51,510 nucleotides of DNA from sequence record PP925845.1. The stretch is one strand, 5' to 3'. Below are positions 4,907 to 49,498 of this stretch, one piece after another. The stretch comes from Escherichia phage BananaBelafonte. A program made the position numbers and the translations under genes. The notes under the pieces are model-generated. The model had not been told where the DNA came from, did not search any database, and worked only from the letters and a program-made list of their open reading frames with translations. Numbering within the stretch: the first letter of the stretch is position 1; each line of letters begins with the position of its first letter.

Positions 4907-5071
4907 ATGCTTTTGATTAAACACGATAGCGGGGCATACTACACGCCAGGCGTTAGGTATGAAGTAAGCCAAACAGAAATCGAGGCGACTGTTTCCGCCT
5001 ATGACCGAGACGAGCGACTCATTAAAACGCACACATTCACAACCAACGAAATAGAGGTAATCGTATTATGA
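4907..5071 (+). CDS. small hypothetical protein (54 aa), not in supplied ORF track
   Basis: ATG at 4907 preceded by AGAGGG RBS directly after a module; stop overlaps next start (ATGA). Confidence 0.3.
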   Translation: MLLIKHDSGAYYTPGVRYEVSQTEIEATVSAYDRDERLIKTHTFTTNEIEVIVL

Positions 5072-5346
5072 GCACTATCCGTAAACACCTGGTTAACGCG
5101 TACACCAAAATTGCAGAGGAGCGCTGGAATGATAGCAAGACCACGGCGCACTCACTCCGCCGTTACGGTTACAAGTCACCGCGCGAATGGGGGCGGCTCA
5201 TGGCGGCGCAGTATTTCAACGGCAACAATCTTTACCAGGTTGATAGCGCGGTTGTCGAAATGCTGGAGGATGCCGCAAAGATGGATGTACCAGTTACGCA
5301 AGCGGATTATGACGCACTGGCGGAGGAAGATATTTCATGCTGGTAA
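5068..5346 (+). CDS. hypothetical protein (92 aa)
   Basis: ORF with GAGG RBS; coupled to upstream small ORF. Confidence 0.4.
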   Translation: MSTIRKHLVNAYTKIAEERWNDSKTTAHSLRRYGYKSPREWGRLMAAQYFNGNNLYQVDSAVVEMLEDAAKMDVPVTQADYDALAEEDISCW

Positions 5347-5531
5347 AAATCAGGACTGACTACGCAGAGACACCCTGGATTGAGCCAGGCAAGGTCTACG
5401 AGGCGGAGTTAGTCGAAACAGGCAAGTTTGCTGGCACGTATAAATTCATGGGGGAATTGGGTTCCCCCGCATACACCAGGCTAACACATTCAACTCACAT
5501 TGGCGGCAAAGATTGGGAGATCATCAAATGA
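5337..5531 (+). CDS. hypothetical protein (64 aa)
   Basis: ORF overlapping neighbours. Confidence 0.35.
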   Translation: MLVKIRTDYAETPWIEPGKVYEAELVETGKFAGTYKFMGELGSPAYTRLTHSTHIGGKDWEIIK

Positions 5532-6148
5532 AACATTACATTACACCAGACCGTGACGGCGACAACTTCACAGCTAACAAGCACTATAAAATTGAATTCG
5601 AGTACAGCAATGATCGAGTTCTTGTGATGGACGACAAAGGCAATAAAACGATTGTGCGGATTGACGGCGTACCGTCTGCACGTCTGAACTACGGCGGAAA
5701 ATTCAAGCGATGCAGCGAGCTACTGGATCGGGCGCTCACCACGGCGGAGAATGTCGAAAAGCTGGTTGAGGAGGTAAAGCCGGAAGTTGAGGCGCAGCGC
5801 CGCGTTGCGGAAGTGGTCAAAGAGACTGTCAGCAACGAGATCAGAAAAGCGCTATTGCCAGGCGGTGCAATTCATAGCGGGGCAGGTTGGCGAATCATCG
5901 ACGGCAAGCACTTTATCCAGAGCGCAGGATTTAAGCTGGCAGCAGAAAACGAACCGCTCGCTGAACGGTTACGCAAGGCAGAGCATGATCGGGATCTGTA
6001 TAAGCAGGATTGCATTAAGGCGGAGGCGGTTATTGATCAGCTTTATGAACTATTCCCGAACGTGCGCAACCATGAGCAACTCATTAGCGCAATCAAGAGC
6101 GCGAAAATCTTTAGTGATGCGTTTCTTGAGCTACAGAAAATCAAATAG
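5528..6148 (+). CDS. hypothetical protein (206 aa)
   Basis: ATG at 5528 preceded by GGGAG RBS; coiled-coil-like C-terminal half; stop embedded in conserved module. Confidence 0.45.
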   Translation: MKHYITPDRDGDNFTANKHYKIEFEYSNDRVLVMDDKGNKTIVRIDGVPSARLNYGGKFKRCSELLDRALTTAENVEKLVEEVKPEVEAQRRVAEVVKETVSNEIRKALLPGGAIHSGAGWRIIDGKHFIQSAGFKLAAENEPLAERLRKAEHDRDLYKQDCIKAEAVIDQLYELFPNVRNHEQLISAIKSAKIFSDAFLELQKIK

Positions 6149-6194
6149 CACTTTTTGCTAAAACTTCCGCGAGGACATTTGTTAAAGTGTCCTC
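6146..6194 (+). promoter_or_regulatory. conserved intergenic module copy
   Basis: TAGCACTTTTTGCTAAAA then hairpin GAGGACA..TGTCCTC with TAAAGT. Confidence 0.55.
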
Positions 6195-6220
6195 ATTGAA
6201 GCGAAGTAGAGGAAACAAAC

Positions 6221-6433
6221 ATGAAAATCAAAATCACCAAAGTAGATATCGACAACGGCGACGGCTCAATCACTCTTGAGCAATGCGGTTTCCAGGTTGG
6301 CGATGTGGTGGAGGTTGACGGCAGTTTTAACAATGGCGATCTGTGCGTGCTGGCGATTCGCAATACTGAGCACATCAAGATCGGTGACAATATTAGCGTA
6401 ACAATGGAAGAATGCGAGGTTGTAGAAGAATGA
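6221..6433 (+). CDS. hypothetical protein (70 aa)
   Basis: ORF with GAGGAAA RBS after module. Confidence 0.4.
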   Translation: MKIKITKVDIDNGDGSITLEQCGFQVGDVVEVDGSFNNGDLCVLAIRNTEHIKIGDNISVTMEECEVVEE

Positions 6434-6666
6434 TCACGATTAACCTTTCAGACGAGCAAGCGAAGAAATTACTACACGCTACCGGATGGGGCGAGCACAT
6501 CCCGCGCGAAGTTGAGATCGAATTATTCCGACAACTTGAGCAGCAGTTAACGCCAGCCTCAACCGAAGCGGCAAGCCTGGCAGTTTGGCGACACGAAAAC
6601 GGCTACACCGCAAAAGCCGTTGAAGATTGGAAACGCAAACATGAGACAATGGAGATCGCAGAATGA
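6430..6666 (+). CDS. hypothetical protein (78 aa)
   Basis: ATG at 6430 overlapping upstream stop (ATGA). Confidence 0.4.
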   Translation: MITINLSDEQAKKLLHATGWGEHIPREVEIELFRQLEQQLTPASTEAASLAVWRHENGYTAKAVEDWKRKHETMEIAE

Positions 6667-47742: not shown

Positions 47743-47985
47743 GATCCGCTCAATGCGAGCCATTAATTTACCATTCAGCGAGCTAACGCATTCGGCGGTG
47801 ACTTTATCGACGTAGACAAAAGGCAGTGACGCGCGGTAGTTATGCCCGATTTGCCACTTCCCGCCTACAACCTTAATCGGCTTGACGATATCGCCAACTT
47901 TCATGCAGGAGGTTTCCCCCGCGATCACTTTGTAGCGCCATTCTTTTTGCACGTCGCCAACGCCTAAGTATTTCTTTTCACTCAT
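47737..47985 (-). CDS. hypothetical protein (82 aa)
   Basis: ORF overlapping upstream stop (ATGA); stop embedded in conserved module. Confidence 0.4.
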   Translation of the reverse strand: MSEKKYLGVGDVQKEWRYKVIAGETSCMKVGDIVKPIKVVGGKWQIGHNYRASLPFVYVDKVTAECVSSLNGKLMARIERIK

Positions 47986-48380
47986 GAATATTTCGCCTCA
48001 AACAGATATGCGCCACCAGCAGAGAATCCGACCTCCTCGCGGTAGAGTGTGAAGCGGTCGCCGTCCTCGTCAAAGATATAGCCAGCCACGCCGCCCAATA
48101 CGCGCCCTTGCTCGATCTGATAACGCTTGCCCACCTTAAATGTTTTCTTGTGGCTCATTGAGTGATCGACATACGTGCATTTGATAGTGCGGGTTTTGAT
48201 TTCGCGATAATCGCGCTTATCAGCATCAACCCACTTTGAGCCTTTCGCCAATTCGCGCACCTGGAATTGCTCATTAAATGAAACTTCTTCGGGCTGAAAA
48301 TCCATGCTGCCATTGAATACAGGGCGATCAACGATACGAGCTTTCATGAGTTTGTTGTCAGAGTTGCGAATCACTTTCAT
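47982..48380 (-). CDS. hypothetical protein (132 aa)
   Basis: ATG (rc) at 48380 after AAAGGAG; ORF-track start 48413 rejected. Confidence 0.4.
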   Translation of the reverse strand: MKVIRNSDNKLMKARIVDRPVFNGSMDFQPEEVSFNEQFQVRELAKGSKWVDADKRDYREIKTRTIKCTYVDHSMSHKKTFKVGKRYQIEQGRVLGGVAGYIFDEDGDRFTLYREEVGFSAGGAYLFEAKYS

Positions 48381-48405
48381 TTGTGTATCTCCTTTCGTTT
48401 GGTGT

Positions 48406-48457
48406 GATTGCATTATGCCAGGCTTTTACACCTGGCGTTTAGCAATTCGTGCTATTT
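48406..48457 (-). promoter_or_regulatory. conserved intergenic module copy (minus strand)
   Basis: Minus strand reads TAGCACGAATTGCTAAAC (stop of methyltransferase-like gene embedded), hairpin GCCAGG..CCTGGC, CATAAT, then AAAGGAG. Confidence 0.55.
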
Positions 48458-49147
48458 TGCGTTTGCGATCATGACGGCACGAGCAAACCCGCGCGGGGTG
48501 AGTGAGCGAAGTTGTTTTGTCCTGGCAGACTTGCCGCCGAGATACTTCCACGCCCAAAAGAAACCGATATTGACGGGGCCAGGGCACGCGCCAGGCATCA
48601 CAAAGCCGTTGCCAAACCAAAGGCATGTTTTCTTTGTGTAGCCGTCAAAGGCTGGCATTTTTGGATGGAATGGCTTTTCGTCCTCTCGCATATACCCGCC
48701 ATACTGGAACGGATGGAAATAAGCGTTAGGCTTGCGCCACTTTGTAGAAAGCAGCCCCACAGGGTTTTCAACCATCCAGGGGCAATCATAGAGCAACCCC
48801 AGCTTTTCGACGAATTTTGCATTGTTGACAGCCAACTCAACCGCGCTTTCGTCTCGCTCGTGCTGTGCGCCACTGTGCGCTAATTCTGTGCATGACGGAA
48901 ACGCAAAAATGATATCGGGCTTTGAGATCACAATGTTGTTGTCGTCGTCGATATCGTGAACGTCACCAACCGGATCAAACCATTCATCAATCCATCGGTT
49001 GACGTAGTGCAAATTTGGGTGACGCATTTTGATCTCATATTCGCCGTGGTCGGCGGAGTCAGCGTTAAAGCAAAATACAGTGTGACCAGCTTTCGCCCAA
49101 TCCAGCCCCATAATACCGGAGCCGTCAAACAGTGACCAAACAACCAT
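48452..49147 (-). CDS. DNA cytosine-C5 methyltransferase-like protein (compact, 231 aa)
   Basis: Motif I-like SLFDGSG, Pro-Cys-like FPSC, ENV-like WMVENPVG; RBS AAGAGG; no obvious target recognition domain. Confidence 0.45.
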   Translation of the reverse strand: MVVWSLFDGSGIMGLDWAKAGHTVFCFNADSADHGEYEIKMRHPNLHYVNRWIDEWFDPVGDVHDIDDDNNIVISKPDIIFAFPSCTELAHSGAQHERDESAVELAVNNAKFVEKLGLLYDCPWMVENPVGLLSTKWRKPNAYFHPFQYGGYMREDEKPFHPKMPAFDGYTKKTCLWFGNGFVMPGACPGPVNIGFFWAWKYLGGKSARTKQLRSLTPRGFARAVMIANAK

Positions 49148-49159
49148 AATCTCAACCTC

Positions 49160-49384
49160 TTAGAATGGGAAACAACGTTTGCAAGACGGATCGAATTCAC
49201 AGCCGCAATCATTCAAGATTGTTGCAGGATCAGCAATAATCGCGCCGGATTCTTGATCCATATCCATATCGCCTAACGCATCCTCAAGCGTGCGCAATTT
49301 ATAGGCAACCTCTAACGCCGCCTCTTTGTTCAGGCCGCAAGCCTCCGCCTCATGCAGACGCGCAAAGAAACCATCTTGAACCAT
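49160..49384 (-). CDS. hypothetical protein (74 aa)
   Basis: ORF whose start overlaps the stop of an upstream small ORF. Confidence 0.4.
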   Translation of the reverse strand: MVQDGFFARLHEAEACGLNKEAALEVAYKLRTLEDALGDMDMDQESGAIIADPATILNDCGCEFDPSCKRCFPF

Positions 49385-49498
49385 TCAAAAATCCCCCATA
49401 AAAGCGATACGCAGCAAAAGAGCACCAATACCAAACAGAATGACACCACACGAAAACACGACAAACGCCATTGCGTAATCAACTAAATCCCTTCTCAT
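49385..49498 (-). CDS. small membrane protein (37 aa), not in ORF track
   Basis: ATG (rc) at 49498 after GAGGTG; hydrophobic AFVVFSCGVILFGIGALLL; stop abuts next start. Confidence 0.3.
   Translation of the reverse strand: MRRDLVDYAMAFVVFSCGVILFGIGALLLRIAFMGDF

Follow-up and report, generated by a model that had tools for sequence, protein, structure and literature searches.

Escherichia phage BananaBelafonte (sequence record PP925845.1) carries five short open reading frames (ORFs), here designated ORF1 to ORF5, in a stretch of 51,510 nucleotides that was analysed at its full length and is referred to below as the window. The five ORFs, their neighbouring genes and the associated RNA signals are collected in Table 1. 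Taken as a whole, they are best explained, with considerable confidence, as genuine short genes of a T1-like phage, packed into polycistronic operons, equipped with their own Shine-Dalgarno (SD) sequence and ATG, and coupled to the genes beside them.

Table 1. Coordinates of the five short ORFs and of associated features in the window
Feature	Position	Strand	Description
ORF1	4907-5071	+	54 aa; soluble all-beta small protein; phrog_11938 family
ORF2	7064-7192	+	42 aa; DUF8272 / phrog_1312 / T7 gp1.8-like
ORF3	42952-43023	+	23 aa; hydrophobic single-pass micropeptide 5' of the SbcD-like exonuclease
SbcD/Mre11-like DNA repair exonuclease	43036-44157	+	T1 gene 16 homologue; between ORF3 and ORF4
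ORF4	44157-44324	+	55 aa; standalone SH3-like beta-barrel; DUF7244; phrog_4788; T1 gp14 homologue
Intrinsic terminator	44349-44374	+	11-bp stem with six G-C pairs, then TTTTTGTTGTT; closes the exonuclease-ORF4 unit upstream of the holin gene
Holin-like gene	44455-44670		3' of ORF4
ORF5	49385-49498	-	37 aa; single-pass transmembrane peptide between gp76-like and gp75-like genes
Conserved hairpin	49518-49537	-	GGGCGG-N8-CCGCCC in the gp76/gp75 intergenic region, just upstream of the ORF5 SD
36-aa gene	4302-4412	+	MMEPQPPFDFNKAVTIGLAILTTLYALRSSLWFVMH; hydrophobic C-terminal half; ATG overlaps the stop of the 3907-4305 gene
36-aa transmembrane peptide gene	42099-42209	+	after the Dam methyltransferase gene; AAGGAG 7 nt upstream; ATG overlaps the Dam stop

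The five ORFs and their coding signatures

Three parts of the window, compared by megablast with a set of 50,697 phage records, identify a T1-like siphovirus of the Drexlerviridae. The nearest record is Klebsiella phage vB_KM5a1-KLB26 (KLB26), at about 91% nucleotide identity, followed by Salmonella phage PMBT35 at about 80% and then by the Changchunvirus phages W011D, PaulSarasin and PHB17; the closest classified relatives belong to the Tempevirinae. The gene order is that of T1, beginning with small early genes and continuing with the terminase, head and tail genes, recombination genes, tail fibre, primase, helicase, Dam methylase, SbcD-like exonuclease and lysis cassette, up to a leftward small-gene block. 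Neither Rfam families nor tRNAs were found in the window. Orthologous DNA for comparison was drawn from annotated phages, from metagenomic contigs and from 40 IMG/VR loci anchored on the exonuclease gene.

An earlier note, made from the sequence of the window, had listed the five ORFs as plausible genes missing from a track of predicted ORFs. All five can indeed be read in the sequence, four of them at the coordinates given there; the third is present as well, although the span 42951-43022 assigned to it is out of frame, and the true ORF runs from ATG to TAA at 42952-43023 (MWRLLVLPLPVIIATAIMYSIVM). Their absence from the track is the effect of its 60-aa cut-off alone; ORF1, ORF2 and ORF4 are annotated in the public records of some relatives. 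An open frame of such a size is no evidence by itself, as the six frames of the window contain 636 ORFs of 20-59 aa. A filter was therefore applied that retained ORFs which share the coding strand of their surroundings, have at least 70% of their length free of long ORFs and follow an SD motif. It was passed by 10 candidates, seven of which (the five listed ORFs and two more) have comparative support as coding sequences.

The start signals and the neighbour coupling proposed in the earlier note are borne out at every one of the five loci. Each ORF begins with ATG, preceded at a distance of 7 or 8 nt by a purine-rich SD sequence: AGAGGG at 4894-4899 for ORF1, AAAGG at 7052-7056 for ORF2 and AGAGG at 49506-49510 on the minus strand for ORF5 (7 nt each), and GAGGA at 42939-42943 for ORF3 and GGAG at 44145-44148 for ORF4 (8 nt each). 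Each also overlaps, abuts or closely precedes an adjacent gene. The stop codon of ORF1 overlaps the ATG of a 92-aa gene at 5068 (ATGA, 5068-5071), that of ORF2 (7190-7192) lies 1 nt ahead of the ATG at 7194, and that of ORF3 ends 12 nt before the exonuclease ATG at 43036, with the GAGGA of the exonuclease in between. The ATG of ORF4 overlaps the exonuclease TAA (TAATG, 44155-44159), while the TGA of ORF5 directly abuts the ATG of its neighbour at 49384. Each ORF would thus be translated from its own SD and ATG and coupled to the adjoining gene through stop and start codons that overlap or abut, an arrangement of the termination-reinitiation type.

Conservation in related phages, the point on which it had been said beforehand that the proposal could fail, was found for all five frames, together with signs of purifying selection. 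All five are open in relatives, Nei-Gojobori ratios of non-synonymous to synonymous substitution (dN/dS) against the window range from 0.03 to 0.44, and third codon positions are enriched for substitutions in every frame (binomial test against one-third, p 0.03 to 1.5e-6). Because the frames stay open, the ratios are low and the changes gather at third positions, sequence comparison indicates that all five ORFs are protein-coding. An exact-sequence look-up of the five proteins returned no match, and none of the five matches an NCBIfam family.

The hydrophobic peptides ORF3 and ORF5

By sequence comparison, ORF3 is near-universal in the Drexlerviridae and unannotated in most of the records examined. 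Searches with tblastn located the MWRL type of the peptide in 141 phage records and the T1 type (MKLYFAVVLTPLISFSVMYFIIM) in 70, and a homologous micro-ORF is present in 37 of the 40 T1-like IMG/VR loci, in each of which the 100 nt upstream of the exonuclease gene were read. Homologues also occur in PHB17 and in T1 itself. The T1 micro-ORF is flanked by ST17 and ST16, overlaps the ST17 stop with its ATG and does not appear in the reference annotation. The peptide varies in length from 21 to 26 residues and follows the consensus M-W-R-L-x-x-L-P-x-P-V-I-I-A-x-x-[IV]-M-Y-x-[IV]-V-M. Across 16 distinct aligned variants Tyr19 is invariant, Met1 and the last Met (M23) are nearly so, and a central Pro is usual. 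Comparison with eight phages gave dN/dS values of 0.04-0.16 and a third-position binomial p of 0.0007. The peptide is strongly hydrophobic, with a grand average of hydropathy (GRAVY) of 1.90 and a best 19-residue Kyte-Doolittle window of 2.38; it has no other domain, and neither PHROGs nor Pfam nor NCBIfam gave a matching family. Annotation exists in the K50PH164C1 lineage and perhaps in further records of Escherichia phages, where a "hypothetical protein" lies under the match. The records of KLB26, PMBT35, Jahat, JohannLBurckhardt, Henu7, RCIP0096 and Sazh leave it unannotated.

The region directly upstream of the exonuclease gene, whose orthologues are annotated as DNA repair exonuclease or phosphoesterase, shows some local irregularities. 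In one IMG/VR locus (L056, UViG_2974785742, around 600-690), the ORF3 homologue is apparently frameshifted, with MKMLFTVTFLLPVAAGVS in one frame and CIMYAVIMS in the next, as the result of either a sequencing error or a pseudogene. In FSL SP-126 and Tls (L044 and L045, 590-700), the 3' end of a gene with an apparent HNH-endonuclease C-terminus, not a micro-ORF, stands directly 5' of the exonuclease. The record of phage tunus (L017, 598-1794) and other Warwickvirus records contain a "putative phosphoesterase" coding sequence (CDS) that is extended N-terminally across ORF3 in a different frame, which is probably a start-site misannotation common to several records. An alternative frame at 42954-43070 was rejected. 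A role of ORF3 as holin or antiholin was likewise rejected: it lies 1.4 kb upstream of the holin gene, with the exonuclease, ORF4 and the terminator in between, its C-terminal end is hydrophobic, and a separate holin is annotated in relatives.

ORF5 appears from sequence comparison to be a rare accessory gene for a single-pass membrane peptide. Alignment of its site with KLB26, PMBT35, PaulSarasin, PHB17 and K50PH164C1 shows that the insertion in the window corresponds exactly to ORF5 and sits between the AGAGG SD sequence and the ATG of the gp75-like gene, so that the alignment traces its origin to a precise insertion. ORF5 uses the pre-existing SD sequence, and its last codons provide a new one, GGGGGA, for the gp75-like gene; by reusing the old signal and supplying a new one, it would be expressed within the existing operon. 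Searches with tblastn found no match in the 50,697 phage records, and neither an exact 33-mer nor a degenerate core pattern retrieved anything from IMG/VR or the JGI metagenomes. An exhaustive HMMER search of 1.84 billion representatives identified a single homologue, P0005, which has 37 aa and 82% identity (E 4.7e-10) and is encoded on a 1.5-kb contig (L019, run SRR28772133), where gp76-like and gp75-like genes flank it as they flank ORF5 in the window. The two copies share 71% nucleotide identity and differ by 16 synonymous and nine non-synonymous codon changes (dN/dS 0.03); 19 of the 25 aligned differences fall at third positions (binomial p 1.6e-5). Residues 7-33 (DYAMAFV[VI]FSCGVILFGIGALL[LV]RIAF) show hardly any change. 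The best 19-residue hydropathy window of ORF5 is 2.59, with no other domain, and its N-terminus is probably cytoplasmic because of an N-terminal Arg-Arg.

Other assignments of ORF5 were discarded. DUF6131 reaches 15.8 bits against a cut-off of 25 (E 0.017) and matches the hydrophobic segment only, and a role as holin or antiholin does not fit, ORF5 lying on the other strand from the lysis cassette, some 4 kb away. A TTG-extended version (49385-49528) would not keep its frame, as the window and L019 differ by 2 nt in the length of the segment preceding the ATG. The hairpin beside ORF5 is identical in the window, KLB26, PMBT35, PaulSarasin and PHB17 (loci compared: L005, L006, L007, L010 and L011), and in K50PH164C1 it reads GGCGGG...CCCGCC, with two compensated base-pair swaps; since no T-run follows, it is probably not a simple, canonical terminator. 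At the ORF5 site of KLB26 (L005, around 1286-1300) there is a spacer, GAGGAAATGTAAAGATGG, with a minimal ATG-TAA, which could be a remnant of an ORF5 deletion or a coincidence.

The families of ORF1, ORF2 and ORF4, and further small genes

ORF1, ORF2 and ORF4 belong to families that are already catalogued, and that of ORF4 has been described in print; a modest novelty lies in ORF3. Profile searches place ORF1 in the phrog_11938 family (E 9.7e-5, 23.5 bits), with a match to profile positions 7-53, the N-terminal half only of the 95-position profile. A profile built from the ORF1 family scores 32 bits against rV5 gp130, aligning end to end with residues 1-53, and 21 bits against LOCUS66 of K50PH164C1, a syntenic gene of 57 aa. 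ORF1 is annotated in KLB26 as MVRO075, at 96% identity, and is absent in PMBT35 and PHB17, in which the flanking genes stand about 82 nt apart. Four metagenomic database homologues (P0006-P0009), which share 61-93% identity with ORF1, are encoded on T1-like contigs some 48-52 kb long and on shorter fragments; they always lie directly 5' of a 91-93-aa gene, with a 4-nt overlap. Values of dN/dS range from 0.19 to 0.27, with a third-position binomial p of 0.0011. The AlphaFold2 model is all-beta, with six strands and a predicted local distance difference test (pLDDT) score of 75.

ORF2 is assigned by sequence to the DUF8272/phrog_1312 family, that of T7 gp1.8. Its phrog_1312 match (E 2.7e-19, 70 bits) covers 1-42 of 46 profile positions, and tblastn found it in 639 phage records at E<0.01 across the Drexlerviridae and Autographiviridae, the latter including many phages of Klebsiella, Vibrio, Erwinia and Escherichia. 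Membership in PF26839 (DUF8272) follows indirectly, through precomputed assignments on homologues at 83-90% identity and on the positional orthologues in loci L022-L024. The protein is 100% identical in KLB26, where it is unannotated, and the records of PMBT35, PHB17, Tls (gp23) and many other phages annotate it; dN/dS is 0.16-0.44 and the third-position binomial p is 0.03. In EG1, a T7-like Teseptimavirus, the homologue has the nucleotide kinase on one side and the RNA polymerase inhibitor on the other and thereby occupies the position of T7 gene 1.8. Tested as the only target, T7 gp1.8 reaches 25.8 bits with a seven-member family profile, and EG1 against T7 scores 18.9 bits. Pairwise BLASTP between ORF2 and T7 gp1.8 gave no alignment, so the link runs through intermediates and position. 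The fold of ORF2 is inferred to be a helical hairpin; its weak PDB sequence matches are designed TPR-like repeats, and PDB sequence searches with ORF1, ORF2 and ORF4 returned nothing significant. Two antisense ORFs over ORF2, 6911-7108 and 7032-7217, were rejected in view of the large protein family of ORF2; the third codon positions of 7032-7217 coincide with the least variable second positions of ORF2.

ORF4 is a member of DUF7244 with an SH3-like barrel. It matches PF23896 (DUF7244) over residues 1-54 of 55, with 93.5 bits against a cut-off of 27 (E 8e-27), and phrog_4788 with E 1.1e-17; all 19 of its database homologues carry PF23896. Homologous sequence occurs in 295 phage records by tblastn, the identity to T1 ST14 is 57%, and KLB26 annotates the gene as MVRO045 (L003, 2373-2540). 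Values of dN/dS are 0.04-0.13, with a third-position binomial p of 5e-6. The AlphaFold2 model is a five-strand barrel with a pLDDT of 94, and the top 29 Foldseek matches in the PDB are SH3 domains or SH3-containing proteins, except for one relaxosome chain, with a query-based TM-score (TMq) of 0.52-0.64. The KLB26 record notes "contains transmembrane domain" for MVRO045, which is probably a hydropathy false positive, given that the confident model is a soluble SH3-like barrel.

The list of five holds in full and is incomplete, since at least two further genes below 60 aa, at 4302-4412 and 42099-42209, are indicated by the same kind of evidence. Their substitution patterns are of the coding type and point to real genes. 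The first shares 100% identity with KLB26, 72% with locus L024, 61% with PMBT35, which annotates a 34-aa CDS, and 60% with PHB17; the proportion of synonymous differences (pS) exceeds that of non-synonymous differences (pN), and third positions are enriched for substitutions. The second has positional equivalents in KLB26 (MVRO040), PMBT35 (a 36-aa CDS) and JohannLBurckhardt (bas11_0036), at 42-47% identity, with pS 0.58-0.63 and pN 0.28-0.33. As its 47% protein identity to MVRO040 stands amid DNA that is about 91% identical, it is regarded as a fast-evolving or exchanged small membrane gene. Among the remaining candidates from the filter, 51236-51310 has no support, and 44362-44430 is conserved solely through its overlap with the terminator and the region upstream of the holin gene. 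As a separate observation, about 9-21 records per search named "Campylobacter phage" (MG0656xx series) contain T1-like or rV5-like coliphage sequence, and the naming or host assignment of these records looks unreliable.

Alternative explanations and comparison with known systems

Conserved short frames may be maintained for reasons other than translation, as promoters, terminators, processing hairpins or structured leaders. According to the T1 annotation, hairpins and terminators abound in the intergenic regions of T1-like phages; a conserved hairpin adjoins ORF5, a sigma-70-like site (6979-7008) and a hairpin lie 5' of ORF2, and the candidate at 44362-44430 shows how such signals can preserve a frame. 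An explanation of all five ORFs as regulatory DNA or RNA is nevertheless extremely improbable, because their changes fall mostly at third codon positions, amino acids being kept while synonymous sites approach saturation, and because none of the conserved hairpins falls within an ORF, Rfam and tRNA searches of the window were negative and the ORF3 region shows no excess of structure over its shuffled versions (z = +1.8; 195 of 200 shuffles fold at least as well). For ORF5, whose searches drew a blank in the phage records, IMG/VR and the JGI metagenomes and gave no family above threshold, a chance frame in a short piece of inserted junk DNA might be considered. This is very unlikely, since the insert is exactly one ORF that takes over the SD of its neighbour and supplies GGGGGA in return, and the slot is filled in a second phage by a 37-aa ORF that is 82% identical, its hydrophobic core almost unchanged. 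Inhibition of host proteins or of defence systems is common among small early proteins of phages, and some or all of the five could likewise be host-takeover or anti-defence factors. ORF1 and ORF2 stand in the small-gene block before the terminase genes, taken as the early region, ORF1 and ORF5 are accessory genes of some lineages only, as is typical of counter-defence genes, and the T7 counterpart of ORF2 adjoins the host RNA polymerase inhibitor gp2. ORF3 and ORF4, however, are near-core genes within a DNA-metabolism operon, and Pfam, PHROGs, NCBIfam and the PDB gave no supporting similarity to characterised inhibitors, so that such a role is unlikely on present evidence.

ORF3 and ORF4 flank the same nuclease gene, and the question for both is what their position means. 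ORF3 could be a regulatory upstream ORF whose translation feeds ribosomes to the exonuclease start or acts through its nascent peptide. It is very short, the SD and ATG of the exonuclease follow its stop directly in most relatives examined, at a spacing of about 3-20 nt, and in T1 the overlap with the gene 17 stop makes it a link in a chain of coupled ORFs; a nascent-peptide mechanism would, moreover, select the amino-acid sequence too. Simple coupling would leave the peptide free, yet dN/dS is 0.04-0.16, and Tyr19, the final Met and the central Pro are kept across subfamilies that share little else; the exonuclease has a good GAGGA of its own, and no RNA structure sequesters it, as the folding comparison indicates. 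A coupling leader with a free peptide or a sequestered SD was accordingly rejected, and the upstream-ORF explanation in general is rather doubtful. ORF3 would instead work as a peptide and not as a mere translated spacer, and it would be made together with the SbcD-like exonuclease. Tentatively, it may be a functional partner of the nuclease, either as a membrane tether or gate or as a nascent-peptide sensor of its translation, and in both cases it would be no accessory peptide standing on its own; ORF5 would then be an independently acquired second membrane micropeptide. Both peptides would insert into the inner membrane as single-pass helices.

For ORF4, a role in lysis has been put forward. 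Eremina et al. (April 2026) described a "standalone SH3" protein (KanT1, T1 gp14/ST14) in 188 of 522 Drexlerviridae, always beside the lysis cassette, with its gene flanked by the exonuclease and the pinholin, and suggested, with no experiment behind it, a supporting role in lysis; SH3 domains serve as cell-wall-binding modules in the endolysins of Gram-positive phages (PMC13164509). ORF4 would then be an auxiliary of the lysis module that modulates the signal-anchor-release (SAR) endolysin or binds peptidoglycan, and the spacing of the gene in T1-type loci, treated below, is compatible with this. In the window, on the other hand, and in 19 of 25 IMG/VR loci with an ORF4 homologue, the start of ORF4 overlaps the exonuclease stop or follows it by 2 nt. 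Most of the related loci shown have an intrinsic terminator, a hairpin and T-run, before the holin gene; it comes after the ORF4 homologue or, in loci lacking ORF4, after the exonuclease. Neither the sequence nor the model of ORF4 contains a signal peptide or membrane anchor by which it could reach the periplasm before lysis. The overlap of start and stop codons and the terminator imply that ORF4 is expressed with the nuclease and not with the lysis genes in this lineage. The lysis role is therefore possible but improbable for this lineage, and a nuclease-associated role is favoured: ORF4 would be a soluble cytoplasmic adaptor made stoichiometrically with the exonuclease. ORF1 and ORF2 would be soluble early-region proteins, each acting by binding a partner protein.

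Several points weigh against the reading of the five ORFs as short genes with these properties. A literature search returned no ribosome profiling or proteomics for this phage or for T1, nor any translation data on T1-like phages. Synonymous sites are near saturation in several pairs, which makes the dN/dS values rough, and the statistics for ORF1, ORF2 and ORF5 come from few independent comparisons (a single one for ORF5). The membrane location of ORF3 and ORF5 derives from hydropathy alone, and the ORF1 model, of moderate confidence, gave heterogeneous and non-significant fold matches only. All Foldseek matches of ORF4 have E>0.1 and none reaches E<=0.001, so its fold class is assigned by consistency, not by significance. 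In T1-type loci, the only ones with a gap, the ORF4 homologue begins 63-65 nt past the stop codon of the exonuclease, and T1 itself has a terminator and an HNH gene between the two; the coupling of ORF4 to the exonuclease is thus not universal.

The outcome is mainly one of annotation, as at least seven real genes of a 51.5-kb phage genome escape a 60-aa threshold, and close relatives are annotated inconsistently in public records: that of KLB26 omits ORF2, and those of most annotated relatives examined omit ORF3. ORF3 has the wider value, being a 23-residue peptide found across the family of T1 with no entry in Pfam or PHROGs, and it offers a testable case of "dark matter" at the scale of micropeptides. 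Additionally, the operon evidence around ORF4 provides a concrete alternative to the published lysis hypothesis for DUF7244. Current understanding is not overturned by five small genes.

Among known systems, short single-pass hydrophobic peptides include type I toxins such as Ibs and ShoB and small inner-membrane proteins such as KdpF and AcrZ. ORF3 and ORF5 resemble them in size, in their single hydrophobic span and in their short charged N-terminus, but searches of PHROGs, Pfam and NCBIfam gave no sequence relationship to any family; no antisense RNA or toxin-type regulation like that of type I toxins is visible for either, and ORF3 differs from the whole group in being near-core and embedded in a DNA-metabolism operon. 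ORF5 is also comparable to the "morons" of phages, as one extra gene between two conserved genes that is absent from most relatives. Classical morons carry their own promoter and terminator, whereas ORF5 brings neither.

The soluble proteins have more definite counterparts. ORF1 is related to the N-terminal domain of rV5 gp130, which differs in having 95 aa and a basic C-terminal tail, at an identity of only about 33%. ORF2 and T7 gp1.8, which is annotated as non-essential and without an assigned function, share the motif S-x-W-C...Y-x-x-L-[FY]-x-x-W-x-S-R-G; a 7-residue segment (ERGDxxA) is peculiar to ORF2 and a 15-residue N-terminal extension to gp1.8, and ORF2 is located in the early region of a siphovirus, with no nucleotide kinase or RNA polymerase inhibitor adjoining it, unlike the T7 gene. 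ORF4, like the published standalone SH3 protein, is encoded with a DNA repair exonuclease on one side and a holin on the other. It departs from the published account in the overlap of its ATG with the exonuclease stop and in the strong terminator before the holin gene, and while that family is found mostly in the Tunavirinae, Braunvirinae and Rogunavirinae (PMC13164509), the nearest classified relatives of the phage carrying ORF4 are Tempevirinae.

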